From assembly GCA_000442015.1 (NCBI GenBank), contig KE561071.1:124001-166751 (forward strand): DNA of 42,751 bases, in the 5' to 3' direction. A program made the position numbers and the translations under genes. Below, one piece after another: positions 4,547 to 37,556 of this stretch. The number at the start of each line of letters is the position of its first letter. Positions within the stretch are counted from its first letter, which is position 1. Origin of the DNA: Rozella allomycis CSF55. Lineage: Eukaryota. The notes under the pieces were generated by a model. That model searched no databases. It was not told the DNA's origin and saw only the letters and a program-made list of their open reading frames with translations.

Positions 4547-4582
4547 ATTTAACAATAAACGCATTTAAAGTTTTATTCTTTA

Positions 4583-6346
4583 TTAATCACTATCATCATC
4601 CGATGACCAATAAGAATTCGATGATCGGTCATCTGAAGAATTATCAGATGCACTAGAGTCATTATCTGAATAGCTTCCTTCAGAGCTTTGGTCAGAACAA
4701 TCAGAGGCAGAGCTACGATCATAATCACCGCAGTATTCCACTGAAGAATCATCACTGGAAGTGTCATAACGGGAATATTTTTTTCTGGAAGAATTGTCAT
4801 CTGACGAGTCGTCATCTGAAGAATCATTGGAATTTCGGGAAGATTCGCTATCATTAGACGAATCATAATTATTCGAGGAAGCATCAGAATTAGAAGAATT
4901 ATCACTCGAAGTGTCATAACGTGAATATTTTTTCCTCGAAGAACCATCATCTGAAGAGTCATCAATTGAAGAATCATTGGAATTTCGGGAAGAATCGCTG
5001 TCATTAGAAGAAGCATAGTTGTTCGAGGAAGCATCAGAATTAGAAGAATTATCACTCGAAGTGTCATAACGTGAATATTTTTTCGAGCGATGCGAAGAAG
5101 CGCTATCATTAGAGGAATCATTACTATCAGAGGAATCACCTGACTTAGAAGAATCCCCCGGGGAGTTGTTGAAGCCTTTATTTACACCTTTAGACGAATA
5201 TTTAAAAGAAAAGGCCCTACTTACTATTCTTTCAGAATCTGATTCTGGATATTTACCAATGTTTTCACAATCAAATTCAATTTTAGATGGCGTCTTTGTA
5301 GGGTTCTCTCTACGTTCTCTTTCTTCCTTCAGGACATTGCGCCAGTAGCTGCCTTGAAATGATTCCATGCAAACATTGCAAAAGATGGTTTTAAACCTGT
5401 TGTAAACATCCTCAACTCCCCACTTTTCAACTGCTACTTTTGTAACTTTATCAGTGCCCCAAACAGGAATGTCAAAATACGTCCTATATGGGGACTGAGG
5501 AGCCATAATATCGTAATGGATAGACTTGTCCGCTTTATGGCTTTTGTAAAGAAAAATAGGCTTTCCCCAAGTAGGATAGGGCTGAAATATAGGTAAATCG
5601 AAAGCATAACCGTTTGAATTGTCGAATATTGTGATTATCGGTCTATTGATAATACTTGCGACTATCCAAGCGGATAAAGTATTATCGAATCTTTCACTTG
5701 AATCTTCATTTAAACCAATTTTCTCAACGGTGGCAATGTACAGGTCAGACTTTGTAAAAGCACTAACTTGATGATAATTCCTTTTTAAAGCTTCGTTAAA
5801 GGAAATCGACATGAAAGCCTTGTATAAATCTTCTGTACCAGTGAAAATCTTTGACAATGACTTCCAGGCAGAACGGCCTTCTGTGACTGTAACAATCTTG
5901 AATGTTGAAGCCCAATCGATGCAATCATTGAATGAATTATAAATTTCTGGGGAATCACTTGAAGATTTTTCGGCACAAAATTGACCAGAAAAGTATTTTG
6001 CTGTTGTCTGCGGAAAGTTTATATGCTTCATAATGCGAATATAGTCGTGATGACCTATGTGTTCGTAAGGATCAAACTGCCTTATGGTTTTGAGTGGGAC
6101 AGTCTTTTTGGAGGCTTCATATGCATAATTTAATGTTAGCTTTGTCGATTTGTAAGCAAATTTAAAGATGATGGTCAATAATAAATAAGTGTACTGGAGC
6201 AACAAAGACGCAGTCTTTAACACAATAGGAGAAATAGAGGGGCTGGATCTATCACTTTCAAATTCAAACTCCATGTAATATTCTCTCGCCGGAAGTCCTA
6301 TCACAGCAACCGCTAGTATGGCTAGCAGCAAGACAAAAATTTTCAT
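4583..6346 (-). CDS. Putative secreted OTU-like protein (catalytic Cys replaced by Ser) with Ser/Asp-rich repeat tail
   Basis: Intronless 587-aa ORF with signal peptide MKIFVLLLAILAVAVIG. EGRSAWKSLSKIFTGTEDLY resembles OTU DGNCLFRALS..LYG.E..H. ASIINRPIITI and PIFLY...IHYD match OTU C-terminal motifs. Paralogous to 6606-8171. Confidence 0.7.
   Translation of the reverse strand: MKIFVLLLAILAVAVIGLPAREYYMEFEFESDRSSPSISPIVLKTASLLLQYTYLLLTIIFKFAYKSTKLTLNYAYEASKKTVPLKTIRQFDPYEHIGHHDYIRIMKHINFPQTTAKYFSGQFCAEKSSSDSPEIYNSFNDCIDWASTFKIVTVTEGRSAWKSLSKIFTGTEDLYKAFMSISFNEALKRNYHQVSAFTKSDLYIATVEKIGLNEDSSERFDNTLSAWIVASIINRPIITIFDNSNGYAFDLPIFQPYPTWGKPIFLYKSHKADKSIHYDIMAPQSPYRTYFDIPVWGTDKVTKVAVEKWGVEDVYNRFKTIFCNVCMESFQGSYWRNVLKEERERRENPTKTPSKIEFDCENIGKYPESDSERIVSRAFSFKYSSKGVNKGFNNSPGDSSKSGDSSDSNDSSNDSASSHRSKKYSRYDTSSDNSSNSDASSNNYASSNDSDSSRNSNDSSIDDSSDDGSSRKKYSRYDTSSDNSSNSDASSNNYDSSNDSESSRNSNDSSDDDSSDDNSSRKKYSRYDTSSDDSSVEYCGDYDRSSASDCSDQSSEGSYSDNDSSASDNSSDDRSSNSYWSSDDDSD
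4745..5085 (-). repeat. 150-bp (50-aa) coding tandem repeat, about 2.3 units, Ser/Asp/Asn-rich with KKYSRYD
   Basis: gaagtgtcataacg recurs at 4758, 4908 and 5058, an exact 150-bp period. Confidence 0.92.
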
Positions 6347-6605
6347 TGTGGCTTGACTCCGTAGATGGCGCTAATCAGTACCAAAATCGTCGTTTGCAAG
6401 CAAATAATTTAATCCCAATTTGATATAATAATTTGAGTTGTAAATGGTAACCTAAAAAAGTATTTTGCTATGTTCTCACAAAATGCTAAGGATCTGGGTG
6501 CGCCACTCCCCAAGGCCCAATGGTGAATGCAACTCACAAAACGCCAATTATATACAGAAAATAAATAATAATATGAAAAAGAAATTTTAAGATGCTAAGA
6601 TTAAT

Positions 6606-8171
6606 TTATTCTTTAAGAATGAGCCATTTGTACTTGTGTCCCATCAATTCGACTTTTGAGGATCGGGAGTTCAAGCCGGTGTTGATTTTGCAGCTAAGAA
6701 TCTTTTCCCAGATAGGAATAACAATATTGATATGATCAACTCCGTAATCACAATTGATAAATTTTAAGGTGGCCTGTTTAACGTCGTCATCGTTAAAGTT
6801 GAACATTCTCTTGTTTTGGAAATAATAATAGTAAGTCAATGCGATAATTGATCTAAATTCTTTCTTGTTTCCATACAATAAAGTAGAAATGGACTTGTAC
6901 AAAGCTTGACCTTCAAAACGACGTTGTTTAGTTCCAAACATTTTATGAAGAGAAAGATCTACAGTTTTGCCAGTGAAACCACGAGAACTTGCAGTGCTTT
7001 TAACTTCTCTCATCATTCTTATCAGATCATCTTCACTGTAATTTGTTCCAAGATAGTTGGATGTATCGTCACGTCTATAGATTTGAACGATTGAATGATC
7101 ACTGCCGCTTGAAGAAGAGGACGAAGCTGATGATCTTCTTGAACCAGGTTGATATGCTGACTCGAATTCAGGAACAGTTTGATATTGAAATTCCGGTTCT
7201 TCCCAATTACGTCCTTCAACAAAATCGGCTACAAATTCACATTTAATATCTTCAAAGTACTTTAAGAGTTTTGGCCCGAATCTTTGGAAAACATAGTTAT
7301 AATTCAAATTGTCACCGTGATACACTCTTAAAGTTGGGATTTTGACTATATCATTAACACTGCCTGATCGTGAAAGGGCAACAAGATGATATTGATAATT
7401 ATTGCCTATTTGCTGTCTATAAAGAAAGATTGGTTTTCTCCAGTTAAGACTCCTAAACACAGGAAGGTCAAAGTTATAATCTTTCTCACCCTCATACAAT
7501 GTGATGATTGGTCTATTAATAACACTAGCAGCTACCTTGGCAGCTAAAGTTCCGTCGAACGGCATACTGTCGCTGTATTTATCAATGGATTTACAAACCT
7601 TTTCATAAATTCTAATATCATCAACGCGTTCATACATTTTTCCAAAGTTTCTAATCAATCCTTCGTTGCACACAATAGCCATAAATTCCTTGTGCTTATT
7701 TTCATCACCCAAATAGATTTTCGCCAAACTTCTCCAAGCTGAATAGTCCACTTTTTCAATTTTGTCAACTCCATATTTGATCAATTCCTTATAGGGCAGG
7801 GCAAGTGAATGTGGGGGAAGAGTAAATTTTCTAACGCCTCTAAAAGAATTAATACCACCAGAAAAGTAATCACCAGTTGATGAAGCATATGGACCATGAC
7901 CTTTGCGAATCTTTTCAAGGACGTCATCATAATCAGCTTGAGACACGTAGTTGGAAGGATTGAAGTACATACGACCTTTGACCATTCTATGAACTTTTTG
8001 GAAGGGGGTCATGATCAGACTAAACATCAACGACATGAAAAAAGCCATAACAGTAGAGAGAGCAGAGTCAGATTGTATCACAGCGCTTGAATTTCTTTGA
8101 GAGCCTCGGTTTGGAGGGGCAGAGAGCACACTGCTGACCGCAACCAAAAGTAGAGCAGAAAAAATTTTCAT
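6606..8171 (-). CDS. Putative secreted protein with two degenerate OTU-like domains; paralog of 4583-6346
   Basis: Intronless 521-aa ORF with signal peptide MKIFSALLLVAVSSVLS. Domain 1: DYSAWRSLAKIYLGDENKHKEF...ASVINRPIITL...FDLPVF...KPIFLY. Domain 2: EGQALYKSISTLLYGNKKEFRSI...WEKILSCKI. Confidence 0.65.
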   Translation of the reverse strand: MKIFSALLLVAVSSVLSAPPNRGSQRNSSAVIQSDSALSTVMAFFMSLMFSLIMTPFQKVHRMVKGRMYFNPSNYVSQADYDDVLEKIRKGHGPYASSTGDYFSGGINSFRGVRKFTLPPHSLALPYKELIKYGVDKIEKVDYSAWRSLAKIYLGDENKHKEFMAIVCNEGLIRNFGKMYERVDDIRIYEKVCKSIDKYSDSMPFDGTLAAKVAASVINRPIITLYEGEKDYNFDLPVFRSLNWRKPIFLYRQQIGNNYQYHLVALSRSGSVNDIVKIPTLRVYHGDNLNYNYVFQRFGPKLLKYFEDIKCEFVADFVEGRNWEEPEFQYQTVPEFESAYQPGSRRSSASSSSSSGSDHSIVQIYRRDDTSNYLGTNYSEDDLIRMMREVKSTASSRGFTGKTVDLSLHKMFGTKQRRFEGQALYKSISTLLYGNKKEFRSIIALTYYYYFQNKRMFNFNDDDVKQATLKFINCDYGVDHINIVIPIWEKILSCKINTGLNSRSSKVELMGHKYKWLILKE

Positions 8172-8604
8172 TGTGGCTTAGTATCCACGAGGGTATGATA
8201 TAAGGAACACGCGAAGGAATGAGAAATCTAGACCAGATGTTATGCAATGATGTTACATATATAATCCAGTTACCTTTTAGAATGACTTTATCTGAATGGA
8301 GCTGTAAAGAAGATTGTAATCGTGGCCAGCGTCATTCGACTCGTTACCCTGGTTTTTACCCAAATGAGAATTATTCAAATAAATATATTTATTATTTTCC
8401 ATCATGTATGATCTACTACTCCCTTTTAAATTTTAATCTTACAGAGAAAGAAATACCTAGCTCTATAAAATATTAACCTTTTTGTACTTTTGGTAGAATA
8501 GTTATAGTGCTCAAATTTCCAACTCTACTTTAAATAGAATGAGATAAACCGACTTTTTAAAATCCACAGTCATTTTCCTATTTGGAAATTCAAGAAACAC
8601 TAAA

Positions 8605-10705
8605 ATGTTTCTTCTACTCGTCTTGGCTCTTTGCATGCTTTTCATAAATGGAAGTTGCTTGTAAATGTAATTTTAACCTACTATAGATTGACGTATGGTC
8701 TTGGTGAAAATTTGCGTTTATACAGAAAAGGCCAGAATTTGCTGTATTCATCAGTAGACTCCTTTGGGAAGATTAATGTTGTAAAGGGGACTTTAGGTAT
8801 TTGTATATTATACGTTTAATTTGATTGGAGAAAAATAAGTGGCAGTCCGATAAGATTTGATATGAGTACCTTTGCAATGCTCGAGGATAAATTGAGGGTG
8901 GAGAGTGATGGAGAATGTTGTGAATTCAATTTTGAAGGATACCTTGTTGAATGTGTGAAAGGAAAATGCTCAAAGCAAAATGAAAAGGTCTCGCCGAATG
9001 ATAATTTTGGGCCTGTTGATAATCTGAAATTGGATCGTGATGACATTAAGCAAGTATTGTTTTAATGTTTCTTTTCCAGGTGATAAAATGTGAAAACGAT
9101 GGAGTTGCAATTGTTTATAAAGATGACGCACTAAAGTATTTTGTTGGAACTGAATTTGTTTGGGAAATGAATGGTTTCCTGAATTTTCCCCAGAAAATCA
9201 GTGTTGTTAATTTTCCCAAAGAGCCAAATGTTATTGAAGATGAAGGTAGTTTTATTAATCTGAAAATTATAGTCCAACCAGAATCATTCATTGAAAACTA
9301 TTTTGAAAGATTGAAATCAATGTTTAAAATAGAAAATTTGATAGAAACTGATAAATTTGGTTTCAGAAAGATGATTGTTGTGCTTACAAGACAAGGTTAC
9401 TTGATTGGCGTAGATTCGTTAACTGGAGAAGTTTTGTGGCAGTCTAAAGAAAAGTTTAAAGATTTCTATTTATCAAAAGTTCACATTCATCCTGAAGTCC
9501 ATGCCATAACGTTAGATAATGTAAATACTTTCCATTTGTTATCAAAAGACTTTGTTTCGTTTTAATTTGTTGAATGGAAGTCAAGAGGAATTGTCGAATG
9601 TATCTTACAGTTCCATTATTAATACAAACAGAGAAACAAAGGATCATCATAAGATACATGGGTTTATTAATGACGATAAAGTTTGGTTTTCTGAAAACTA
9701 CATGATGACCCCTGTCAATTATTTTGAATTGAAAGGAAAATCTTTAATTGGAAATGTTATAGTAAATTCCACTGTGAATCAAAAATGGGAAAATATTTAT
9801 CCAAATTCAATAATTAAATCAACCAAAAGGGAGCATGTAGCTGAAATATTGCAAGGAAAAGTATTAGGTGATAGAACTACGTTGTTTAAATACACAAATC
9901 CTAATATGATTGCAGTTCTAACAAAAGGAAATCTTAATGATGACCATGCAGTTTCCATAGTAGACACTAAATGGGGAAGAATATTAACCCGAATCAATAT
10001 TAAAGATTCCAAAGGGCCATTTCATTTAAATTTTCTAGAAAACAAGCTAATAATAATCTATTCTGGAGTTAAATCTAAACGAACACATCTAGTCGCAGTA
10101 GACTTTTATGATTCTTGTGACAGTGATAAAGGATATCAGTAAAGACAGTAAAATTGCTATTATAGACAAAATTATACCATTGATTCAAAGATTTGTAGTT
10201 TTGATTTAAGTTTTATTCTTCCTGTTGATGTCAAGGCAGTTGGACACACAAACACACTGCAAGGAATCTCTACTAGACATTTTCTTGTTCTATCAGAAAA
10301 TGGAGATTTATTTAGTATTTCAAAGAATGTTTTGGATGCTAGACGACCTCTTCATAAACCGAATCATTTAGAGTCTGAAGAAGGCCTCTTTCAATATGCG
10401 CCCCTAATTAAACTGGAAGAGAAAAATATCATAAACAAAAACTCGCCTGTAATCATTAATTTTTGTTTTAAAAGATTGATGCTAATGAGATTAAAAGTTT
10501 TCCTACCGATTTAGAATCCACTACAGTCATTTTATGTACAGGTAGAGATTTTTACATGACTACTTGGTCTTCTCAACAATTTGATCGTTTATCAGAATCT
10601 TTTCAGAAAGGCCTACTTCTATCAGCCCTATTGACCCTTTCTGTTATCGCGATTATAGCTCAAAGGTCTCACAAGAAGAAAGTCTTTAAAAATTATTGGA
10701 AATAA
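8605..10705 (+). CDS. EMC1: ER membrane protein complex subunit 1, multi-intron
   Basis: Signal peptide at ATG 8605; FGFRKMIVVLTRQGYLIGVDS; GKVLGDRTTLFKYTNPN; LDARRP...EEGLFQYAP; LESTTV...FDRLSESFQK plus a C-terminal TM ending NYWK*. Internal exon boundaries are approximate. Confidence 0.88.
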
Positions 10706-10733
10706 ATTACATAAATATTTATCATTTTATTCA

Positions 10734-11722
10734 TTATTTCTTTAATGTTGAATAGTAAAAAACTCCAGCTATTGTCATTGAAATCCCTAGCAAGGATCGA
10801 TTGGTTGGTGGCTCATCAAACAAGAACATTCCTAAAACAACTACAGTGCAAAGTTTAAAGTGGCCAACAATATTATACGTCAAGGCTGACATTTTTCCAA
10901 TTATTAAAAATATCGAGAGATTCACAAAAAACGCCAACATACAAGTTCCTAATATTGCATACTTGTTCATTTAAAGAATATAGAGTTACTATAGAATTTA
11001 ATGTCCATTGGTAATTTACCAAAGCATTCAAATCTTCAAATAGAGGCAACACTATCAACAGCATTAGCGATGAGATTGGCGATTGATATAAAAGCAACTG
11101 CATGGAATTAACCTCCAATTCTTTTTGTTTACTGCCAATACTGACTTGGTAATACGATGTGACCATTACACCCAACAATGCAACAACTGCCCCTCTAAAA
11201 TTCAGTCGAACATCTGAAACTGATGCTATCATTACACCAATGCAGATCCATGTAATAGTCAGCAATGTTTTTATATTAACACTTTTGTTGTAGAAAAAAT
11301 ATTGTATAAATACAACCCCTGGTGTTGTTAACACTTTAGCCATTTGGTAAAATCCAACCGAATTATACTGAAGACTTAAATTGGTTAACACAACGAATCC
11401 ACAAAATGATGCTGACAGAGTAATAACCTTTTTAATCGGAATTCGCTTGAATTCAAATAGTCCAAGCATAGAACAAACTAGAAGACCGAAAAAGGTACCC
11501 AGAAAGTGTAGAATTGTTAGAAATGTACCTCTATCACAATTAAAATCTCTATTTACCATAATTGAAATTGTATGTTTTGAATACACTCTTATTAAGCAAA
11601 ACTATGCCCACAGACGATATCACATTAGTAACAATAAAAACAGAATTCTTTAATTTTTCGCTAACCACGTCACTCTTTTCATTGCTTTCATTGGGCATTA
11701 ACAAAACGACCTTGTCAGTCAT
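10734..11722 (-). CDS. SLC35E3-like nucleotide-sugar/triose-phosphate transporter family protein
   Basis: NVISSVGIVLLNKSV, FVVLTNLSLQYNSVGFYQMAKVLTTP, MQLLLYQSP and SALTYNIVGHFK motifs, with two short introns. Alternative start at 11698. Confidence 0.88.
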
Positions 11723-11734
11723 AAGCCAGGGTTT

Positions 11735-13279
11735 ATGAAAAATTCGACAACTTTGCAAGATTTATTTCAACAAGAGGTTGATCCAAAAGCAATAGAAAAA
11801 TTTGGCAAAATTGCCAACTGGATAGGCGCTGTTGATTCCAAGGGAAAGAAACAAAGAGAACGAGGTATGATTTTTAGCAAAAATCCAAAGGCATATCTGT
11901 TGATGATGACTTGTTTGGTACCGTTGATAGACGCTCGCAAAAATCTAAATATGCGACAAAGCAAAAGGTATTGGGGATGTGAAATTATTATAAAGGTTGT
12001 TGCGCCGAAAAAGGTATCTGCAATTCCTTTACCTTCTACTGTAAGTCATGATTGAATTGCGAGAGTGGTAGATTCTGGCAGTTAAAAAGAAGAGTACTGC
12101 TTGGAAAACAAATGTTCAGAGCAAGGGCAAATTTATTGATATCGATCCTAAATGGGAACTGTTGATGGAGTTTGAAAGAGACAATTTAATAGAGTTACAA
12201 TACAGCCCCGAAGAAGGAAAAACGCTGTAATTATTTTTGATTAAATGTGAAAGATTATCAATTGGCTCCCTTCCCAAATTTGATGGAACTTTTGACAAAA
12301 TATCAATCAAGAATCCAAAGCAGCTTTTGGAAGAAATAAAAACACCCAAAATTCCTTCCGTTGTAGAGGATCCAACAATGGCAGATTTTATTTCCAAGAG
12401 GAAAGCAAAGATTTACACCACTGATAACATCTTGAGTGCGTTGATGAGTCATTGTCGTTCTACAATTCCATTTGACTTTAAAATTATTAGAAAAGATGAT
12501 TACGTTATTATTGACGCAAGAGAAGGCTCCATATTGAGTACATTATTGTTTATAGTTTAATAGACTTTGAAACGCTACTTGAATCAACTGCCGCTGAAAA
12601 TTTAGACTTTGGAGAAGAAAATTACAATTCTCCGCTTTCCTTGATTGATGAAGTTACAAAATGTCATCATAAATTTTCTGCTCAAGTGAAGGGTCTTGCT
12701 TCCAACGATTCTCAAATAAATTATCGACTGTGGGACTTTGGAGACAATGTTCAATTGCTTTGCAGAACATCTCTCGATGCCAGCTATGAATCTGAATTCA
12801 AGTCTGGTCCTGTCTCCACTCACTGTCTTGTTGAAATCGACTCTAGAGTCACCAAAGTTGATTTCAAACAAAAAGCGGATTCCCAACGTGGTGCTATCCT
12901 TGGTAGTGAAATGCTCAATAATCCAAACAAACTTGCTAGGTGGTTGTTTCAATCTATTCTTGCAGACGCAAAGTTTCTCAAAATTGGGTAAATCAATTAA
13001 TTATTTACAATTCAGATATGTATCAAGAAAACTTTCTAGAGATAATACAAAGCATGTTATTCTAGGAACTGAAACTTATGCAGTTGACGATTTTGCTGTC
13101 CAAATTCACATGGATGTTTATAATGGCTGGGGAACTGTAAAGGCTCTTTCTGATGTTCTCTTAAATTTGCCTGTTGGCGAATATGTAATGGTTAGAACTC
13201 CAAGAAAAGTATTTCTGATTTATTTACGTAATTCCAGGGTGGACTTCGCATCTATAAAGCAAATGAAGATGATAAATAA
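11735..13279 (+). CDS. EIF3D: Eukaryotic translation initiation factor 3 subunit D, multi-intron
   Basis: KFGKIANW; DPTMADF...TDNILSALMSHCRS; YRLWDFG; DFKQKADSQRGAILGSEMLNNPNKLARWLFQSILA; YVSRK...HVILG; NGWGTVKAL...GEYVMVRTP. Stop at 13277-13279 after the last intron. Confidence 0.9.
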
Positions 13280-13343
13280 ACTAATTTTACATACAAATCT
13301 TTTGAATCTTTACTAAACGAAATTTTCATGTTTTTTGGCAAAC

Positions 13344-14314: not shown

Positions 14315-14363
14315 ATCAATTGCTATAAATTGCTGTAATAAAATTGCTAAATTAAAAGTTTAT

Positions 14364-15868
14364 TTATGCTTTGGATTTCTTTGACTTTTTCTCTTTCAAA
14401 GATTTGTGCTTTTTCTTTTCTTCTTTATCCTTTTTCTTTTCTTCCTTTGATTTCTTTTCTTTGATTTCTTCTTTTGGAACAATTTCATCAGTTTCTTCTT
14501 CTTTCATTGGAACTTCATCTATTTTAAGATTGAAGGGTTAATTTACCAATAGATTGCATAACTTCTTGCATAACATCAGTATTCTTTCTTGGAACGAGTC
14601 CAGATTCATAAAACATCATTCTTTCTTCAACTTGAGATTTAAGAGCCTCACCAAATTTCGTTGTTGGGTTTTCTGAAAAGCAATCTATTCTGGAAGCGAT
14701 GGAACATTTGTTAGCCAAATAACGTGAGATTCTACCTTTATTCTTTGCCCCTGCTCTTCCGATGAATGAAGAATGAAAAATGAGACCATATTTTGGAGTT
14801 TTCCCTCTTGTTTTCAAAGCTCTAAAGAGAGCCTTTTCAGCGCCAAGGATTTGAACAGTTGAGGCAGGATATTTGGAAAGGTTAGTCAAACTTCCTGCAT
14901 GGGCGATGAGTCTGGCTCCAACTATTTCTCCAATGAGGGTAGCAAGGTTTGGTGCAACAATATTCATTTTGTTTTGAAGATAAGAAAATAAACGAGCGCG
15001 GTACTCGTTAAGTGAAATCACTCTGTCAGCAAATAGTTTAATGTTGATTAAATCAATAGGAGAAATATCAGTTCCCATTGATGATCTTGCCGCGTCAATG
15101 ATGTGTTGTGCAAGATCTTCATCACCATCAACTATCTTTGTAATGTCATTTATTTTGTCTTCAGAAAGAGTGCTTTTATCACCAATAAGTTTGGCCAACA
15201 CTGCATACTTGGCATTGTCATTAACCAAGCGAACGAGTTCAGGAAAATGCCATGAATACCATTCTCTAATTCTCATTGAGAAGGTGTTAACATCCTTGTC
15301 CAATTGATCCAACAATGAAATAGCTTGAATAATCATATTGTCGCTTCTATTCACATTAAATTTCACTTTCGCTCTTGAATAACTATGACCAAGCCCCAAT
15401 TGTGCTCTAGCTAAATCTCCTTGCTTAAATTGTTTCAACATTTTCTCTCCGTGATATCTTATTCCACGGATAATCTCCAAAACAACCTCATCAAATGAAC
15501 AATTATATTCAAGCTCTTGCTTAATAGAACTAGCCAAAGCTTTATCACTAACACCGATTGTTATTTTAGATTTCTTTCCAGCATTTCCTAGATTCATTTC
15601 CAAAAAGTTCTTCAAAGATTCACCAACTATGCCTTCAGAAATATCGTTAATATTCTCCAAAGCATCACCCGCACTCTTAAAAGGCATAAAAGATTTTAGT
15701 TTAATCATTTGTCCAAATTTAGACAAATCAAGAATGCTTTTTTGCACTTCACCAAGTTCTTGTCCGATTTCCTCAGATTGGACTCTTTCAAACAATGCAT
15801 ACCCAGAAGCAGTTTCAAAAAGAATAAATAATGGCTATTTTTTCATTTAAAACTAATATTCTTACCAT
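14364..15868 (-). CDS. NOP56: Nucleolar protein 56 (box C/D snoRNP)
   Basis: [77 protein letters not shown]-rich tail. The first exon is the ATG alone (intron 15835-15865), with a second intron near 14520-14547. Confidence 0.95.
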
Positions 15869-15970
15869 TTCGATTTTTTTCTTTTTTCCAGGGCTTAGGT
15901 GGCGCGGTTTCTTTAGCTTAAATCGAATTTGAACACCACAAAACAAATTAAAAAGAATAGATTTTATTGA

Positions 15971-17407
15971 TTATTGCGAGTTTATACGGTGTTTATTATT
16001 AGAGAGCATTTTGATCTTGTTCACTAGACTCATGTCATTTCCCAACATGGCTATATCACTAGGCGTTTCGTTATGTGCATTTACTTTTGTAAAATCAGCT
16101 TCATACATATACAATAAATCAATTATGAGGTCACGAACATCATTTGTTTGTTCTATTTCCATGACATAATGGATGGGAAATTTGCCAATGATATCTGGCT
16201 TATTTGCGTCTGCCCCGTATTCTAATAACAGCATGACTATATCGACTTCTTCACAGTTAATAGCATGTATTAGTAAGGGTAGCCCATTTGAATATTCATG
16301 CACGAGATTGGGAAAACGTTCGAACAACCATTTTAGTCCTTCGACTGCACCTGTTTGCACCAAAACATGAAGGGAATTATATCCATGTTCAATCGTTTCT
16401 TCCGGGCTTATTCCTTTTTTGAACAGCCATGAAGCCGCTTCTAATTTATTGTTCAATAATGCATGCGCAAGTGGTGACAGCCAACCCATATATTCCGCGT
16501 CTCTGAATAAGCATGAATTGATTTCGTCCGCTGTTAATTTAAGCATATCTAGATATTTTTGACTGTTTGCATTGATAGCAGCTTTGAACAATGATTTGGA
16601 CATCCCAGCGTTAACAATTGCATGTATTTCGTCGTGCAGCTTGTGCTCAAAAAATTGGCCCGCAAAGTCAGGGAGTTCATTATTTAAAAAATTAATTGTC
16701 TTCCGAATTATTTTTCTCGAAACATCACGGGAAAACAGGTACTTGGCACAAACTGAGAATAATGGCCCATTGATGATAATTTTAAAAATGAATTTGAGTT
16801 TATCGAAACAGCTTAATCTCTTTATAATATTATCAACCTGAACAGGGATTTCCTTCAGTGGCAATTCGTCATCAAGTCTTTTGAATACTTTTAATGCTGA
16901 ATAAATGTCAAAATATTTTCCTGAGTGTGCGCCTTGGATGTAAAAGCTTAGCTCTGCCGTGCTTAAATTATATAACATGTTTGGATCAACTGTGAGAACA
17001 TTGTTGGTATAGTAATTCTCGATGTATGACAGGGCATTGTTCACGCTTTGTGTCCTCGTTAATACTTGCTTTTTTGCTATATTCACCCATGATTTTAAAT
17101 CAATTGGCCAAATTATTGCATTTTTGGATGAGTGAATCGTGTGCATCATCCAATCAACATCGTCGTTCGTTAGTTTCTGTGGATTTTCAAAAAGATAATC
17201 CAATCTGCTAGAAGCTAATTCGTTTAATGCTCTTGAAATCTTATAGAACTTTGAATGCACAGGCAATACATGTCTTGCAACTTCATTTATTGGGATTCTT
17301 TTGCAAACAATGGAGATAACTTCTTCAGGTAGATTTAGAATATACGAACTATTTTTCATGCGGTCGATGAAACTAAATAACAACAATATTATAGCATGAA
17401 GTAGCAT
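15971..17407 (-). CDS. Putative secreted F-box + ankyrin-repeat protein (array copy 4)
   Basis: Intronless. Hydrophobic N-terminus MLLHAIILLLFSF; F-box-like LNLPEEVISIVCKRIP...LPVHSKFYKI; C-terminal ankyrin repeats such as LLLEYGADANKPDIIGKFPIHY. Confidence 0.8.
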   Translation of the reverse strand: MLLHAIILLLFSFIDRMKNSSYILNLPEEVISIVCKRIPINEVARHVLPVHSKFYKISRALNELASSRLDYLFENPQKLTNDDVDWMMHTIHSSKNAIIWPIDLKSWVNIAKKQVLTRTQSVNNALSYIENYYTNNVLTVDPNMLYNLSTAELSFYIQGAHSGKYFDIYSALKVFKRLDDELPLKEIPVQVDNIIKRLSCFDKLKFIFKIIINGPLFSVCAKYLFSRDVSRKIIRKTINFLNNELPDFAGQFFEHKLHDEIHAIVNAGMSKSLFKAAINANSQKYLDMLKLTADEINSCLFRDAEYMGWLSPLAHALLNNKLEAASWLFKKGISPEETIEHGYNSLHVLVQTGAVEGLKWLFERFPNLVHEYSNGLPLLIHAINCEEVDIVMLLLEYGADANKPDIIGKFPIHYVMEIEQTNDVRDLIIDLLYMYEADFTKVNAHNETPSDIAMLGNDMSLVNKIKMLSNNKHRINSQ

Positions 17408-17448
17408 ATTGCACTTTGACAGTGAGATAAAAGATGTAAAGATGTTTA

Positions 17449-18909
17449 TTATTTTGTCATATCCATTATAGAAAATACAGATCGTATCAAAGAGACAATG
17501 GTATGATCAGTTTCATTTGTAACGTAGTAGTTAATGTCATGGCCAAAGTAATCAACAGAATATACCTTTTCAGGATAATTAAGTAAAATTTCGGCCACAA
17601 CATTTGTTTTATTCAAATATACACCCAGGAGTAAAGGAGTCATACCGTTTGCATCAAAACAATCTAGATCTACTCTTACTTTCAATAAAGATGACAGAAA
17701 GTAGTTGTTAGGGCTTTCTACAGCATAGTGTGCCACATAACTCCCGGTGGGATCAATGGCGTTGATATCTGCTCCAAAGTTAAGAAGTAAATCGAATGCT
17801 TCAACGCGATTAAAATCAATCGCAGTCATTAACGTAGAGTATAAACAGCCAGATATATTTGCATGTTTAGGTTCTTTGTTGAGAATCCATTCCATTCCTA
17901 ATACATGATTTTCGATTATTAAATTGTGAAGTATTGAATAGCCATCTTCTTTAATGTCTAGTCTAGCTCCATTTTCATATAGCCACTGTGCTGCTTTGAA
18001 TTTGTTTTGAAAAAGTGCTTCCTCTATCAGTAATTTTCCTTGGACTCTCAAATTTGCATCTTGAACCACCATATTAAGGACAGATATGTTTTCATGTTCT
18101 ATTGCTGGTAAGTAAAGAAAGATCCGCTCAACCTCCTTTATAATATTTATTTCTTGTATTAAGTTTTGTTCCACAAGAAAATCGGATAGAAATGCGCCCG
18201 TGACTTTAGCAATTGAACGAATCATGTCTTTGGAGTACTCTGGTTTGAAAAAAAATTTTACCAGTACTCTATGTGGCCCAATTTGATAGAGAGTCTTAAT
18301 TAAAAAACTAGTTAAATCAAAGCTGCTAAGCATATTAATTAATTCATATAAAAACTGGTCTTCGATGCCATCACCATACATTTTTGTTACAAGCAATTGA
18401 GCAACAGGTAAAGAAATACACCCATTTTTGGTTTGTGTTTTTATTTCTTTTAACGCAGTTGCAAAACTCATTGTCTTTGTTTTTATGGCTGACAAGAAAT
18501 TTTGTGATATATTTTGTCTAGATGTCATTTTGTTATAGAGATTATGGAGAATTTCATGACAATCCACTGGTGTATTTTGTTTTGCTACTTCAAACCAATG
18601 TTTCAAATTGAAGGATACCAACGCCACACCTTTTTCAAAAACAGGGAAGAAGTCGTTCAGCCATTCGATATCTTCGTTGCTCAACATTGCGGGGTTTTGA
18701 TATAAATAATTGGCCCTACCTATTACTACTCTCCTTTCTCGATTAATAGCTTTGTAAGAATTTTTGTCAAGAGTCATTAAAGATCGACAAACCACTTCCG
18801 TGCAAAAGTTAGAAAAAATATTCCTCAAAACCTCCCCGGGAAATTTTTTGAAGTGAGTTGAAGATATTTGAGCTGACAATAGTAAGAAAACTGAAAAAAA
18901 GTAGATCAT
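17449..18909 (-). CDS. Putative secreted F-box + ankyrin-repeat protein (array copy 3)
   Basis: Intronless. Signal peptide MIYFFSVFLLLSAQISS; F-box-like FKKFPGEVLRNIFSNF; ankyrin repeats LLLNFGADINAIDPTGSYVAHYA and DANGMTPLLLG. Confidence 0.8.
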   Translation of the reverse strand: MIYFFSVFLLLSAQISSTHFKKFPGEVLRNIFSNFCTEVVCRSLMTLDKNSYKAINRERRVVIGRANYLYQNPAMLSNEDIEWLNDFFPVFEKGVALVSFNLKHWFEVAKQNTPVDCHEILHNLYNKMTSRQNISQNFLSAIKTKTMSFATALKEIKTQTKNGCISLPVAQLLVTKMYGDGIEDQFLYELINMLSSFDLTSFLIKTLYQIGPHRVLVKFFFKPEYSKDMIRSIAKVTGAFLSDFLVEQNLIQEINIIKEVERIFLYLPAIEHENISVLNMVVQDANLRVQGKLLIEEALFQNKFKAAQWLYENGARLDIKEDGYSILHNLIIENHVLGMEWILNKEPKHANISGCLYSTLMTAIDFNRVEAFDLLLNFGADINAIDPTGSYVAHYAVESPNNYFLSSLLKVRVDLDCFDANGMTPLLLGVYLNKTNVVAEILLNYPEKVYSVDYFGHDINYYVTNETDHTIVSLIRSVFSIMDMTK

Positions 18910-18943
18910 AATGGTGGCTTTGCCTTTGCCAAAGAAGGGTAGA

Positions 18944-20428
18944 TCAGTTTATTGATGTTATACTTGGCCGATTTAGTAAGAAATAAGCAGCATCAATGTA
19001 TTGTACGATCATAGGGCTTGTATGATATTCAATGTAATTAAGAACAGATTCACCAAATGCATCAACAGTATTTACAAGGTCAGGCCTTCTGGATAAAATG
19101 GCAGCAGTGGTAATTGAATTATCAAGCCATATGGCTGTTAAAAGAGGTGTCCTTCCGTCAGCGTCAAGAACGTCCATGTCAACATTCCCTTCCAAGAGTG
19201 CCAAAATGAATTGAGCGTCGTTTTCTTCTACTGCTACATGGGCCACACTACTTCCTTGTAAATCTTTACCATTCACATCGGCTCCATTCTTTAATAGCAA
19301 ATTGAAGATATTAAAGTCTTGGAATTCGATTGCCAGTATCAAGGGGGTAACAGATGGAGTGCGAATGTCAATCATTTCAGGGCGTCTCTCAATAATCCAT
19401 TTTACCAAATCAAAGCGTCTGTCCATAATTGAAATGTGTAAAAGATTGTACCCAAATTCATTGCACGACAAAAGATCGGCGCCTTTTGTAAACAACCACT
19501 CTGCTGATTTCAAGGCACCATTGAATAAAGCAATTTCAAGAGGGGTTTGATTGCTTATGAATTCATTTGCATTTATTTCATATTTTTCTAAGAGATCGAT
19601 TCTTTCCAGGGTAATGAATGACGAGTAGAAATATTTCAAGAGGCCAGAATCTTTGATAATTTCTATTTCTTCAAGCATGTTATGCATAACCATATAATTA
19701 CAGAGATTCTGAAAGAGATGATTTGCTACAGTGAAGTGCGATCGTATCATGTCATTTGAATAAATAGGACGTATTAAAAATTTAATAAAAACATTCATGT
19801 AGTGTATGCTATTATTAAATACATTAAATATAAATGTAGAGAGATCAAAGCTACTTATTGCTGATATTAGCTTTTTCAAGTCACGTGAATCAATTTTTTC
19901 ATCATTCTCATTACTCTTTTGCATAATTAAAATAGCCATCTGCGTGGACAAACTGCAACCTTGGAATGCCTTAAAACTGATGTGCTCAATCGACTGTTTA
20001 AAAGTCATCGATTTGATTAGGTGTACTTCTTCTTTAGAAAATGTACATCTCTGAAGCAAATAAAAGGCTGTTTTATCAACATAGTCAGATAAAGTAGGAA
20101 ATTTCTTCTTGACCTTCATAATCCATTGCTCCCTATTGAAGGACTGAAACACTATCCGTCTTTGGAGAGTTTGCATGTTTTCCGCCATCCAAACAACGTC
20201 TTCAGCTTTTATTTTGTCTGGATTTTGAAAATAGTAATTAGATTTCCCTACTTGTTCATGTCTAGCACCATTAAGTGATTTTGCAGTAGCCTTATTGAGC
20301 AAACATAAATCGCCAAAAGTACGATTTGGGCAAATCCGAGAAATAATATTATCCAGTACATCTTTAGGTATAGAATCAACAGGTAAACAGAAGATTACTG
20401 ATGAAAAAAGAAACAATGTAAATTTCAT
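18944..20428 (-). CDS. Putative secreted F-box + ankyrin-repeat protein (array copy 2)
   Basis: Intronless. Signal peptide MKFTLFLFSSVIFC; F-box-like VDSIPKDVLDNIISRI; ankyrin repeats TPLILAIE...LLKNGADVNGKDLQG and DADGRTPLLTA. Confidence 0.8.
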   Translation of the reverse strand: MKFTLFLFSSVIFCLPVDSIPKDVLDNIISRICPNRTFGDLCLLNKATAKSLNGARHEQVGKSNYYFQNPDKIKAEDVVWMAENMQTLQRRIVFQSFNREQWIMKVKKKFPTLSDYVDKTAFYLLQRCTFSKEEVHLIKSMTFKQSIEHISFKAFQGCSLSTQMAILIMQKSNENDEKIDSRDLKKLISAISSFDLSTFIFNVFNNSIHYMNVFIKFLIRPIYSNDMIRSHFTVANHLFQNLCNYMVMHNMLEEIEIIKDSGLLKYFYSSFITLERIDLLEKYEINANEFISNQTPLEIALFNGALKSAEWLFTKGADLLSCNEFGYNLLHISIMDRRFDLVKWIIERRPEMIDIRTPSVTPLILAIEFQDFNIFNLLLKNGADVNGKDLQGSSVAHVAVEENDAQFILALLEGNVDMDVLDADGRTPLLTAIWLDNSITTAAILSRRPDLVNTVDAFGESVLNYIEYHTSPMIVQYIDAAYFLLNRPSITSIN

Positions 20429-20466
20429 GTCACGGGGCTAAGCCTTTGCCAAAAGTGAATATTTAT

Positions 20467-22044
20467 TTAATATAGAGACAAGGCCCTTCTTGCTTTAATT
20501 ATTTGCAAATGTATTTTAATATCATCATCGGCTTCAACGGTAGATAAATATTGTTCTGGTAACTCTCCAAAAGCATTTCTAGTATTCAACAAGTCCGGTT
20601 GAATATCAAGGAGGATCCTAACTAATTTGATATTTTTGTTTTGAATTGAATAATGTAGGGCTGTCATTCCATCGCAGTTTAGAGATCTAATGTCTGCCCC
20701 CATGGAAATCAAATGTCTTAGGAAAAAGAAATCTTCCATCTCAGATTCCATAGCGTAGTGGATAGGATAATTTCCGTATAGATCTGGTACTGATACATCT
20801 GCGCCCATCTTAATTAGAGCCAAATATGCGTCTTTCATCTCAAATTCTATTGCAACCATCAGAGGAGTCATTACAGTACTTCTTTCATTGATTTTTCTTG
20901 GGAATTTTTCAAGTAGCCAAACTGTTTGTAAAACCATGCCATATCGAATACACGCATGCACAATGTCTTCCCCTCGTGAGTTCAATTTATCAGGTGTCAA
21001 ACCTCTTTCTATTAGCCATTCAGCAGAGTTGAATTTAAACCCCCAGAGGGCATACATTAGTGGATGAAGTAAAGTAACCTCACCTTCAGGGAGTCTAGGG
21101 TCTACAGACAGTGTTCGATACAATTGTTTTTCTGTTATGTTTAAAGAATTTAGAAATGGTATATTATCAAAGAGAATTCCAGCTTGAAGGAAAACGTGTC
21201 CCAAGCCAGCATTCACAAGCACATTTATCTCATCTTTCATTTGAAGATTTACCATTGATATCCAAAAGTCTTCATATTGAATTGAAATATACTTTGAAAT
21301 ATTTATAAGCATGGATTTAGAATTCAGTGGGCTGAAAAGATATTTGACCAATGTTGGAAAATACTCATCATATGAAATGACCAGGTAAATAAATCTCAAT
21401 CTATCGAACGGATTAACCCTTCGGCATAGTAATTTTATGTTTCTTTCAATATCCAGCTTTTCATTATTAACATTAATTATCATTTTATCATGTATTCCTA
21501 GCGCCGTGTGAAGTGAAATATATTGATCACAATTATAACTTTGTATTAAATCTATAATTGTACTAACATTGGTGTTTGCCAGGTAATGCTTTGAGAAAGA
21601 AATTGATCTTGACACTCCAAATGGATAGAGGGAATGTAAGAAATTAAGTACGGGCTTGATAGATTCCACGGGTAGAAATTCCTTTGTTATAGTTTTAAAC
21701 ACCTTGTCACACCAACTTTTTAAGTCAACGTTTTCAAACAATGCATATGGCAAAACTCGCCATAGTTCCTCCTTCATCCAGAGTAGTTTCTTGATTGTAA
21801 CCTTGTCAGGATTTTGAAACAGGTAATTGCATTTAGCAGCAATGAAAGGTTTGGTTGTTTGGGTGATATTAGAAAAGCGTGAATTCAAAGGCTGTACTGC
21901 TAGTGCCGATTTTTCTGGCTCTAATTTGGACAAGATTGATATCAAAAGTTCATTTGGCAAATCGGTTAGTTTAGTTTTGTTTGCTATTGGACTAGATGAA
22001 ACAATCAGAATCAATGCAAGAAAGCTGACAATTAGTGTTGTCAT
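20467..22044 (-). CDS. Putative secreted F-box + ankyrin-repeat protein (array copy 1)
   Basis: Intronless. Signal peptide MTTLIVSFLALILIVSS; near-canonical F-box LTDLPNELLISILSKLEP; ankyrin repeats TPLMVAIE...GADVSVPDLYGNYPIHYA and NCDGMTALHYS. Confidence 0.85.
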   Translation of the reverse strand: MTTLIVSFLALILIVSSSPIANKTKLTDLPNELLISILSKLEPEKSALAVQPLNSRFSNITQTTKPFIAAKCNYLFQNPDKVTIKKLLWMKEELWRVLPYALFENVDLKSWCDKVFKTITKEFLPVESIKPVLNFLHSLYPFGVSRSISFSKHYLANTNVSTIIDLIQSYNCDQYISLHTALGIHDKMIINVNNEKLDIERNIKLLCRRVNPFDRLRFIYLVISYDEYFPTLVKYLFSPLNSKSMLINISKYISIQYEDFWISMVNLQMKDEINVLVNAGLGHVFLQAGILFDNIPFLNSLNITEKQLYRTLSVDPRLPEGEVTLLHPLMYALWGFKFNSAEWLIERGLTPDKLNSRGEDIVHACIRYGMVLQTVWLLEKFPRKINERSTVMTPLMVAIEFEMKDAYLALIKMGADVSVPDLYGNYPIHYAMESEMEDFFFLRHLISMGADIRSLNCDGMTALHYSIQNKNIKLVRILLDIQPDLLNTRNAFGELPEQYLSTVEADDDIKIHLQIIKARRALSLY

Positions 22045-37408: not shown

Positions 37409-37556
37409 CTCGTGATCATAAAAGAAAATAATGCTAAATATAACACTTGTAAGTTCTCAGTCCTTTTTGCTAATGCAAAACTTATCTTTAATCTGAGCCT
37501 ATGGTATAACACATTAGTTTCGATATTTTGCACATTGGAGATGTTATCATTGTATT

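Follow-up and report, generated by a model that had tools for sequence, protein, structure and literature searches.

In terms of domain order, AnkB of Legionella pneumophila, a Dot/Icm effector from a parasite that lives inside the cells of a eukaryotic microbe, places an F-box first and ankyrin repeats after it, the proposal being that it docks onto host Skp1 and redirects the host SCF ligase, as described in the available part of PMC2790608. The SSGP71 proteins of the Hessian fly, a large and fast-diverging family from a eukaryotic parasite, combine a signal peptide with an F-box and mimic host E3 adaptors (available portion of PMC7330099), and the poxvirus PRANC proteins form multigene adaptor families, directed against the host, in which ankyrin repeats are joined to an F-box-like Skp1 binder (PMC4353913 and PMC9414399, in the parts accessible). 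Serine at the nucleophile position of an OTU fold is found in Drosophila Otu and CG3251, products of duplicated genes with proposed deubiquitinase-independent roles; according to the accessible sections of PMC4654579, both are inactive in vitro, as are the natural Ser-OTU proteins tested so far, and CG3251 neither cleaves nor detectably binds ubiquitin. In the microsporidia, host-exposed proteins detected by proximity labelling fall into species-specific expansions with signal peptides or membrane segments, LRR, and RING domains, and no F-box/ankyrin or OTU-like family was found described in the available portion of that report (PMC5423893). A review, likewise available in part, reports the view that Rozella allomycis evolved many protein-interaction proteins for host manipulation (PMC6690862).

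The locus compared here lies on contig KE561071.1 of R. allomycis CSF55, in a stretch of 42,751 nt (positions 124,001–166,751, forward strand) that we call the window. Among free-standing organisms, Rozella is the nearest relative of the microsporidia, and it is a model for the origin of intracellular parasitism in the fungal lineage; no Rozella effector was found described in the literature searched. By its modelled features, a four-gene F-box/ankyrin array in the window looks like a new organism's version of a trick already known among parasites, the pathogen F-box mimic type of effector. The reading developed below, which we regard as evenly poised between right and wrong, is that the locus holds two unrelated, lineage-specific, and uncoupled families: a set of host-directed F-box/ankyrin adaptors and a pair of probably dead, membrane-anchored OTU-like proteins.

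Two tandem arrays and their origin

Six uninterrupted ATG-to-stop ORFs of 478–587 aa, all on the minus strand, form two tandem arrays of paralogs, one of two genes and one of four, in agreement with the preliminary description of six intronless minus-strand duplicates.

4583–6346, minus strand: OTU-like 1, 587 aa, identical to public protein P0115; aa 1–17 signal-peptide-like, aa ~46–64 second hydrophobic segment, aa ~150–285 OTU-like domain (nt 5492–5899)
4743–5154, minus strand: tail of OTU-like 1, Ser/Asp-rich, with 3 × 150-nt tandem repeats
6606–8171, minus strand: OTU-like 2, 521 aa, public model P0116 ends at aa 140; aa 1–17 signal-peptide-like, aa ~37–57 second hydrophobic segment, aa ~135–270 OTU-like domain (nt 7362–7769), then the C-terminal 250 aa
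15971–17407, minus strand: ANK1, 478 aa; F-box-like aa ~25–65 (nt 17213–17335), architecture as ANK4
17408–17448, minus strand: ANK2/ANK1 spacer, 41 nt
17449–18909, minus strand: ANK2, 486 aa; F-box-like aa ~23–63 (nt 18721–18843), architecture as ANK4
18910–18943, minus strand: ANK3/ANK2 spacer, 34 nt, carrying TTTGGCAAAGGC and AAGCCAC
18944–20428, minus strand: ANK3, 494 aa; F-box-like aa ~19–59 (nt 20252–20374), architecture as ANK4
20429–20466, minus strand: ANK4/ANK3 spacer, 38 nt, carrying TTTGGCAAAGGC
20467–22044, minus strand: ANK4, 525 aa, identical to public protein P0117; aa 1–20 signal-peptide-like, aa ~26–66 F-box-like (nt 21847–21969), aa ~70–320 helical linker, aa ~325–500 ankyrin repeats

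Paralogy is significant within each array. The OTU-like pair shares 30% identity across 282 aa (E 1e-24), and all six pairs of the four-gene array match at E ≤ 5.6e-23, with 24–32% identity across almost the full length. No similarity was found between the two families (E > 0.3), and tblastn found no extra copy of either within the window. Public model O9G_001185 (281 aa) is an over-spliced, shortened piece of the ANK2 ORF; as two or more of the six public models are truncated or over-spliced, secretome surveys built on them would miss these proteins.

The preliminary description set the six genes apart from every conserved gene of the window by their lack of tiny introns, a contrast that holds across the window. 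Each of nine Pfam-identified conserved genes (GH31, SulP, EMC1, TPT, eIF3d, Hus1, Nop58, GAPDH, and TRAPPC9; 45 candidates in total, three GAPDH examples read directly) has one or more frame-bridging GTA..AG introns of 25–31 nt, whereas none of the six array ORFs requires an intron by a frame criterion that in-frame, stop-free mini-introns would escape. The same filter inside the six ORFs returned four candidates, all joining short off-frame stretches. The absence of introns fits young, lineage-specific genes: both families may be intronless because they are young and fast-evolving, whereas the conserved genes retain inherited mini-introns.

In composition the arrays are native, with a codon usage (RSCU) correlation of 0.94, GC3 of 0.327 vs 0.303, and GC of 0.357 vs 0.352. 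A 20-kb repeat scan found no flanking direct repeats, and the short flanks inspected held no poly(A) remnant. Among 1.84 billion representatives, the two-gene array had two matches, both to itself; in a collection of 5.8 billion proteins, 2 of 3,510 candidates were confirmed, both from the array searched, together with 0 of 7,984 longer candidates; in viral contigs no relative was confirmed among 225 or among 75 pattern matches. Given the native codon usage, the lack of flanking repeats, and the lack of relatives, the earlier suggestion that these genes were retroposed, horizontally acquired, or inserted is unsupported.

These results bear on the notion of one co-regulated toolkit, horizontally acquired or retroposed and inserted among housekeeping genes, in which secreted F-box writers act alongside secreted OTU erasers or decoys. 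Both families touch on ubiquitin-related folds, are intronless, and lie on the same strand 7.8 kb apart, giant-virus clusters are the nearest language-model neighbours of both, and AAGCCAC stands directly before the ATG of OTU-like 1, OTU-like 2, and ANK2. These three sites are among five occurrences in the window against 3.25 expected, however, which is no overall enrichment, and the only upstream motif common to both arrays, AAGCC close to the start codon, is found ahead of GAPDH and Nop58 too. The Atlas tool warns that its taxa give no sign of transfer, and composition, flanks, and viral contigs are as described above. The interval between the blocks, about 8 kb in the preliminary description, measures 7,799 nt (8172–15970) and contains five housekeeping genes, all with introns and distributed over the two strands; both OTU-like copies lack the catalytic cysteine and have a likely transmembrane segment ahead of the domain. 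We consider such a toolkit very improbable. Ubiquitin theme aside, nothing ties the two-gene to the four-gene array, so that the functional linkage first suggested finds no backing and a toolkit is unproven.

The F-box/ankyrin proteins and a modelled Skp1 complex

Ankyrin repeats are present in all four proteins of the larger array (Pfam Ank_2, E 4e-12 to 2.9e-19, the latter in ANK3), where they constitute a separate C-terminal substrate-binding domain. Of the domain calls made earlier, this one stands, while the F-box and the OTU-like fold are probable, neither reaching the Pfam threshold.

For the N-terminal segment, no sequence-profile test attains a curated F-box threshold (Pfam PF00646/PF12937). 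The Pfam F-box-like family matches one of the four segments below threshold (E 6e-4; 17.4–20 bits vs a cut-off of 24.3) and none of the other three; the family profile falls in register with the TIR1 F-box at residues 8–48, but with E 1.3; and hhalign aligns it to the F-box of P0109, a Pfam-annotated F-box/ankyrin protein, over 27 columns at E 0.0025, with a probability of only 11.7%. The AF2 model of ANK4 aa 21–325 is all helical (pLDDT 78, pTM 0.73), and its residues 1–43 (segment pLDDT 47–56) superimpose on the cyclin F F-box 9cb3_A at rank 23 with 42 aligned residues, an rmsd of 2.9 Å, 24% identity, and Z 5.0, a value within the range that the fold-search tool calls common among helical models. 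Foldseek returned no match to the N-terminal model at E ≤ 0.001. All 10 Atlas structure neighbours are F-box clusters, at TM values of just 0.39–0.46, and the LP, the hydrophobic ladder, and the subsequent helices are retained in all four paralogs. The N-terminal segment of the array is probably a divergent F-box.

Docking to Skp1 was modelled for one paralog, using ANK4 aa 21–111 and a Pfam-verified stand-in Skp1 from a metagenome contig, which is neither the Allomyces nor the Rozella protein. The complex scored 0.83 in all three runs, as against 0.11 for the best of three controls (+0.72), with at least 89% of contacts in common among runs and a partner pLDDT of at least 77. The predicted interface sets Skp1 residues 97–163 against partner residues 3–38, which is the canonical F-box face. 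In calibration, 51 of 78 solved complexes came up to the docking mark, as did 2 of 108 mismatched pairs (39/65 and 2/126 for eukaryotes). Because F-box and Skp1 are a textbook pair, the pass may reflect resemblance to solved structures; the model thus supports in silico the docking of the ANK4 F-box on the C-terminal helices of Skp1, as likeness and not as proven binding. The idea that these proteins could recruit a ubiquitin "writer" is backed to this extent, by the F-box evidence and a modelled complex.

A hydrophobic stretch opens all six proteins of both arrays (maximum Kyte-Doolittle value over 11 residues of 2.57–3.55 in the first residues); these stretches were judged as signal peptides by a hydrophobicity heuristic and by eye. 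In the ANK proteins the stretches span ~13–15 residues; positive charges come after, not before, the stretch in three of the four, and in ANK1 initiation at a second Met (aa 17) could yield a form without the hydrophobic N terminus. From these features, the F-box/ankyrin proteins could instead be ordinary SCF substrate receptors acting on proteins of the parasite itself, the N terminus being an uncleaved anchor (N out, domains cytosolic) or, in ANK1, skipped. The order F-box, then ankyrin repeats, is ordinary for cytosolic proteins, and P0107 and P0109 have it without a hydrophobic N terminus; Skp1 is so highly conserved that the complex model suits the parasite's own Skp1 equally, and the placement of the basic residues agrees with an anchor. 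Cleaved signal peptides typically have stretches of this length, however, and a membrane span would usually be longer; the stretches are retained in all four paralogs despite 24–32% identity, and three of the four have no alternative Met ahead of the F-box. Host-exposed proteins of the sister group also follow a pattern of tandem, fast-diverging orphan families, as far as the accessible portion of PMC5423893 describes it. On balance we judge service in the parasite's own SCF to be unlikely.

The OTU-like pair

Pfam OTU (PF02338) matches neither protein of the two-gene array, even with the domains alone at E ≤ 10, and a PDB profile search gave no match. The assignment to an OTU-like fold comes from other comparisons. 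The language-model search of the Atlas gave a feature score of 0.93, with 188 of 256 features shared; the 10 best Pfam-bearing matches all share the family of the top one, 20 of 30 are in the OTU set, and structure comparison gives TM 0.49–0.58 to 10 OTU clusters. With 14 viral OTU segments as targets, of which 12 are Pfam OTU, hhalign gave one full-domain alignment of 114 columns (E 0.02, probability 2.3%), in a register that pairs Ser with the Cys, "NRPIIT" with the central strand, and "HYD" with the His motif. In Foldseek, the first 23 matches listed for the AF2 model (pLDDT 32) are all OTU deubiquitinases (ranks 1–27, E 0.087–1.3, TMq ≤ 0.31). Taken as in silico support, these results make a strongly diverged OTU-like fold probable. 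A second OTU copy, suspected by eye in the C terminus of OTU-like 2, gained no support on follow-up.

Both copies carry serine where the catalytic cysteine is expected ("GRSAWKSL" with Ser159 in OTU-like 1, "DYSAWRSL" in OTU-like 2), a residue that lines up with the invariant Cys in DGNCLFRA. At the catalytic histidine, "IHYD" of OTU-like 1 aligns with the OTU HYD, and "YQYH" of OTU-like 2 has its His one position off. With the nucleophile replaced in both, they are probably dead enzymes, and the "eraser" role given to them earlier is unsupported, the Ser-OTU precedents being inactive (PMC4654579, in the part available). A second hydrophobic segment at about aa 37–65 in both proteins (KD19 1.52 and 1.89) points to a membrane anchor with the OTU-like domain cytosolic, which suggests that the pair is membrane-anchored and not, as the preliminary description had it, freely secreted. 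We infer membrane topology, like secretion, host delivery, and targets, from such features.

It is also conceivable, though quite unlikely, that neither family acts on ubiquitin, the LPxE(L/V)L helix being a chance occurrence at the start of a helical-repeat/ankyrin binder and the OTU-like fold a reused relic, for example in a membrane protein that has a structural or adhesive role and a tail rich in Ser and Asp. Such a reading draws on sequence-level statistics that are all below threshold, on middling fold-search Z values, and on the lack of cleavage or detectable binding reported for Drosophila CG3251 (accessible part of PMC4654579). Against it, four independent kinds of test place the F-box in the same register, the Skp1 model exceeds its controls by +0.72, and the LP, hydrophobic ladder, and subsequent helices are kept throughout the paralogs.

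Proposed host-directed adaptors and known systems

In the proposed mechanism of two uncoupled families, an F-box/ankyrin protein would enter the wall-less parasite's secretory pathway and reach the cytoplasm of the host, Allomyces; in Rozella ultrastructure, host membranes surround the parasite, and a secreted protein would still need to cross them. The F-box would then dock onto the C-terminal helices of host Skp1 and the ankyrin domain would bind a host protein, after which the host SCF ligase would ubiquitinate the protein so held, or Skp1 would merely be sequestered. At only 24–32% identity, the four copies would have different targets. The OTU-like pair would serve at the parasite membrane as catalytically dead scaffolds or binders of ubiquitin, or of a ubiquitin-like protein, and not as deubiquitinases. 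With a putative export signal, an F-box modelled on Skp1, and a variable ankyrin domain in each copy, the compact four-gene array offers a directly testable hypothesis for host-cell control by a wall-less parasite.

A more far-reaching version, which we think rather unlikely, has Rozella exporting all four adaptors into the fungal host cytoplasm and commandeering host SCF to destroy or re-route proteins, while the Ser-OTU neighbours bind ubiquitin chains without cleaving them in the surface membrane, at the host-parasite interface. If this were so, a member of the fungal lineage would for the first time be seen to use F-box mimicry on another fungus. The adaptors would have arisen when an endogenous F-box/ankyrin gene gained a signal peptide, in convergence with AnkB, PRANC, and SSGP71, and the spacers of 34–41 nt would imply overlapping transcription of the four genes as a single unit. 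The Rozella lineage would then be a further origin of SCF hijacking, a strategy already used by bacteria, viruses, and an insect.

The F-box/ankyrin proteins are reminiscent of AnkB in being pathogen-made and in having the probable F-box ahead of the ankyrin repeats. Unlike AnkB, which is bacterial and delivered by type IV secretion, they are eukaryotic, with a signal-peptide-like start, a helical linker of ~250 aa, and a four-gene tandem array; AnkB carries a C-terminal CaaX motif, and no sequence relationship between it and the Rozella proteins is detectable. SSGP71, whose signal peptide, F-box, and rapid divergence recall the signal-peptide-like start, probable F-box, and rapid divergence of the Rozella proteins, differs in carrying an LRR, in belonging to an animal parasite of plants, and in having experimental evidence for binding to wheat Skp1-like proteins as against the model obtained here (PMC7330099, available portion). 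PRANC proteins are likewise adaptors from multigene families, but they are viral, with N-terminal ankyrin repeats, a truncated C-terminal F-box, and no signal peptide in the accessible accounts (PMC4353913, PMC9414399). Drosophila Otu and CG3251 share the serine and the duplication with the OTU-like pair, but they are cytosolic and recognisable OTUD4 homologues (PMC4654579, in part), whereas the Rozella pair has a signal-peptide-like start, a probable membrane segment, and no detectable sequence relatives. As lineage-specific expansions with signal-peptide-like or membrane segments, both Rozella arrays resemble the host-exposed families of the microsporidia, the sister lineage, as the available part of PMC5423893 describes them.

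Two tandem sets of uninterrupted ORFs

The gene map, based on a Pfam run on stop-to-stop fragments of this AT-rich eukaryotic DNA (GC 0.29–0.39), contains two groups of minus-strand ORFs.

Gene map of the window, in map order, with the basis of each assignment in brackets
GH31, minus strand, first in the map (Pfam)
SulP/STAS transporter, plus strand (Pfam)
Two orphan ORFs, minus strand: OTU-like 1 (4583–6346) and OTU-like 2 (6606–8171)
EMC1, plus strand (Pfam)
TPT transporter, minus strand (Pfam)
eIF3d, plus strand (Pfam)
Hus1, plus strand (Pfam)
Nop58, minus strand (Pfam)
Four ankyrin ORFs, minus strand (Pfam): ANK1 (15971–17407), ANK2 (17449–18909), ANK3 (18944–20428) and ANK4 (20467–22044)
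GAPDH, minus strand (Pfam)
Kinase-like ORF, then Ty1/copia element, then TRAPPC9, after GAPDH (Pfam)

The six ORFs (1,437–1,764 nt, all on the minus strand) were confirmed as uninterrupted, and BLAST separates them into the two tandem paralog sets proposed in a preliminary description of this DNA. OTU-like 1 and OTU-like 2 are 30% identical across 282 residues (E = 1e-24), and ANK1–ANK4 are mutual paralogs over nearly their full length (24–32% identity, E ≤ 5.6e-23 in 6/6 pairs). No similarity between the two families was found by BLAST, and no extra copy of either was found in the window. A short hydrophobic stretch opens all six proteins. Judged from the reading frames, the public models of 17449–18909 and 6606–8171 are defective. 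The former, O9G_001185 (281 aa), starts at an internal methionine and has three in-frame pieces spliced out; because these pieces carry residues invariant in the four paralogs (an FD..F motif, a lysine and one entire ankyrin repeat), the contiguous ORF was taken as the better model. The latter ends at 140 aa of an ORF of 521 aa. ANK1 and ANK3 were not found in the protein collection within the length ranges searched.

Introns in the window are 26–31 nt long, begin with GTA and end in AG, and three of them can be read directly in GAPDH. A script that seeks such short introns connecting two open frames returned 45 candidates across ~16.5 kb of conserved genes, with at least one in each of the nine, in agreement with the earlier claim that every conserved gene is interrupted. 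In the six ORFs (9.3 kb), the reading frame requires none, and the four candidates there connect short off-frame stretches only. Since ~25 introns would be expected at the average density by our own arithmetic, and ~4.6 at the lowest density (SulP, one in 2 kb), the contrast within this window is real; in-frame, stop-free mini-introns may nevertheless lie inside the six ORFs, where the sequence offers candidates. The non-conserved kinase-like and copia ORFs are likewise uninterrupted, and for this reason the rule seems to be that lineage-specific genes lack introns, not that signal-peptide genes do.

Two features of neighboring genes are recorded here. In Nop58 (15835–15868), exon 1 seems to consist of nothing but the ATG, with a 31-nt intron (GTAAGAATATTAG...AATAG) starting right after it. 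At 26044–27387, 27661–31036 and 36810–37456, two related kinase-like ORFs flank a Ty1/copia-type retrotransposon, whose domains (gag-pre-integrase, integrase and RVT_2) lie in fragments separated by frame breaks; near-identical 29-mers are common to the kinase-like ORFs on either side. The window has 19 N bases, mostly between ~31.1 and 36.4 kb.

The six ORFs had been suggested to be retroposed, horizontally acquired or inserted. Their codon usage is that of the conserved genes (RSCU r = 0.94; GC 0.357 versus 0.352; GC3 0.327 versus 0.303), and no direct repeats were found flanking either block. The Atlas taxa had hinted at giant viruses as a source; in viral contigs, the related-locus search confirmed 0/225 and 0/75 pattern matches. 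With native codon usage, no flanking repeats and no confirmed relatives in viral contigs, a foreign, retroposed or inserted origin is unsupported. Nor did the evidence uphold a joint toolkit. The blocks are separated by five housekeeping genes, which occupy both strands. The candidate regulatory motif linking the blocks, AAGCCAC, stands just 5′ of the ATG in three of the six genes; its count in the window (5, with 3.25 expected) shows no enrichment. Because AAGCC motifs precede GAPDH and Nop58 too, this element looks like a general start-site signal. AAGCC or TAGCC lies 0–30 nt before the ATGs at 6346, 8171, 18909, 20428, 23284 and 15868 (OTU-like 1, OTU-like 2, ANK2, ANK3, GAPDH and Nop58, respectively), and may be a general Rozella transcription-start or initiation-context signal, which would imply very short 5′ leaders.

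The probable F-box/ankyrin array

In all four ANK proteins, Pfam detects ankyrin repeats over the last third of the chain. This part matches solely generic repeat proteins; the 114 matches span only 7–58% of the query, confined to the repeat region, and are scattered among animals, fungi and bacteria, and therefore point to no donor of the domain. For the N-terminal 300 residues, no relatives outside the array were found in protein collections or viral contigs, and a profile of the N-terminal 305 residues of the four ORFs, run against 5.8 billion proteins, gave two matches, both from this array (the 525-aa ANK4 product and O9G_001185, a hypothetical protein of Rozella allomycis CSF55 encoded on the same 166,751-nt contig).

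In each of the four proteins, the hydrophobic N-terminus is followed immediately by the pattern LPxE(V/L)(L/I)xxI...L. The sequence tests for an F-box are all sub-threshold and mutually consistent in register: a Pfam F-box-like match in one of the four (E = 6e-4, 20 bits, below the 24.3 cut-off), a match of the family profile to the TIR1 F-box in the PDB (residues 8–48, E = 1.3), and an hhalign alignment of 27 columns at the extreme N-terminus (E = 0.0025) with P0109, a genuine F-box/ankyrin protein whose Pfam F-box is precomputed.

The AF2 model of ANK4 residues 21–325, built from the four-sequence alignment, is all-helical and confident (pLDDT 78, pTM 0.73). Foldseek returned nothing at E ≤ 0.001 for this model, the best match being Puf4 (0.05). 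When searched exhaustively with VIA, the model superimposes through its first 43 residues on the F-box of cyclin F (Z = 5.0, rmsd 2.9 Å, 42 residues aligned, 24% identity), and its last 60 match the ankyrin domain of OspC3. The helical linker in the middle matches only generic helical repeats (best Z = 5.6, VIA-align wide) and is therefore assigned no fold. The structure neighbors in the Atlas are F-box clusters in 10/10 cases (TM 0.39–0.46).

Complex modeling gave the sharpest test of the F-box. ANK4 residues 21–111 were paired with a stand-in Skp1, taken from a metagenome contig and recognized by its Pfam domains Skp1_POZ and Skp1, and the model scored 0.83 in all three runs (controls 0.11, 0.00 and 0.00), with at least 89% of contacts common to the runs, a partner pLDDT of at least 77, and an interface of Skp1 97–163 against partner residues 3–38. 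In the calibration of the tool, 51 of 78 solved complexes reach the mark, as do 2 of 108 mismatched pairs; for eukaryotes the counts are 39/65 and 2/126. Because F-box/Skp1 complexes are already solved, this pass indicates that the segment is F-box-like to the model and is not proof that ANK4 binds Skp1. Taken together, the sequence register and the models make it probable that the N-terminal segment is an F-box. On metagenome contigs, fungal-type Skp1 genes without introns are common (loci L036, L031, L092 and L118), and the 11-residue motif LILAANYL(D/N)IK by itself retrieved at least 120 metagenome loci.

The spacers of the array, at 17408–17448, 18910–18943 and 20429–20466, measure 41, 34 and 38 nt, and an exact 12-mer, TTTGGCAAAGGC, is common to two of the three and occurs nowhere else in the window. 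As spacers of 34–41 nt are too small for separate promoters and terminators, the transcripts of the four genes may overlap or be polycistronic. Overlapping or polycistronic transcripts occur in microsporidia.

The OTU-like pair

The OTU-like family matched nothing except its own genes in Pfam, in searches of PDB sequences and when HMMER was run over all 1.84 billion representatives; the family profile had no match among PDB sequences at E ≤ 10, and a single-protein search gave just a proteasome subunit (E = 0.54). The protein-language-model search retrieved OTU clusters (score 0.93, 188/256 features), with a family shared by the 10/10 best family-carrying matches, and the model that the Atlas itself provides can be aligned with 10 OTU clusters (TM 0.49–0.58). 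Against 14 OTU segments from viral contigs, 12 of them Pfam-confirmed, hhalign produced a single 114-column alignment (E = 0.02) that pairs SAWKSL with CLFRAI, NRPIIT with the central strand and HYD with the His motif. Our AF2 model from the two-sequence alignment is too poor for residue reading (pLDDT 32.1) and was used for Foldseek ranking only; the first 23 rows listed (ranks 1–27) are all OTU deubiquitinases, including DUBA, nairovirus vOTUs, Cezanne, OTUD1, VCPIP1 and otubains, at weak E values of 0.087–1.3. These searches and models make an OTU fold probable.

The pair had been assigned an "eraser" role, which is unsupported on two counts. First, the position of the defining catalytic cysteine is serine in both copies, and we therefore do not class them with the OTU cysteine proteases. 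In Drosophila, naturally occurring Ser-OTU proteins were inactive, and one showed no detectable ubiquitin binding (PMC4654579). Second, each protein carries another hydrophobic segment around residues 37–65 (KD19 1.52 and 1.89), after which comes a Lys/Arg-rich stretch. Should the first segment be a signal peptide that is cleaved off, these heuristics predict a type I membrane protein with the OTU-like domain facing the parasite cytosol, a topology that does not fit a freely secreted enzyme. The pair is best read as putative membrane-anchored pseudo-enzymes.

The 20 bases across the two start codons (6335–6354 and 8160–8179; reverse complement AAGCCACAATGAAAATTTTT) are 100% identical, against no more than 30% identity between the proteins, which points to selection or gene conversion in this region. 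The tail of OTU-like 1 (4743–5154) comprises three 150-nt tandem repeats, 71–88% identical, that code for a Ser/Asp/Asn-rich end; this repeat explains the opposite-frame ORF at 4573–5139 as an artefact. OTU-like 1 shows a weak partial repeat (E = 0.026–0.10). By eye, the C-terminal part of OTU-like 2 seemed to hold a second OTU copy, which neither hhalign (E = 0.27 over 16 columns) nor BLAST (E = 0.27) supported.

Proposed role of the array and known F-box mimics

The earlier interpretation is partly supported: the F-box and OTU-like calls are strengthened by the Skp1 model, the register and the fold searches, and the evidence does not support an eraser role, a joint toolkit or a foreign origin. 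The order of F-box first and ankyrin repeats after it is an ordinary arrangement for cytosolic proteins, as in P0109 and P0107, F-box/ankyrin proteins without a hydrophobic N-terminus; the unusual element of the ANK proteins is therefore their signal-peptide-like start. The main rival reading takes the four proteins to be internal, membrane-tethered SCF receptors of the parasite itself. The reading we favor is that they are exported F-box adaptors: the F-box would dock on host Skp1, and the divergent ankyrin domains would select host proteins and present them to the host SCF ligase, with secretion, entry into the host cytoplasm and targets being what we infer.

Rozella allomycis is an obligate endoparasite whose host is the water mould Allomyces (PMC6690862). 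The proposed mechanism agrees with the view that Rozella expanded protein-interaction proteins for host manipulation (PMC6690862). It also matches what is described for microsporidia, whose host-exposed families are lineage-specific (PMC5423893). No description of these genes was found in the literature on Rozella F-box/ankyrin, signal-peptide, ubiquitin or secreted proteins; the genome paper (James et al. 2013), which lies outside that coverage, may bear on this. Pathogen F-box mimicry is already known as a kind, and the Rozella array would be a sequence-orphan member of it in a lineage without one in the literature covered, the genome paper again excepted. The F-box mimic mechanism is established for AnkB of Legionella, for ankyrin/F-box proteins of poxviruses and for SSGP71 of the Hessian fly, whereas in Rozella it is proposed from sequence and models.
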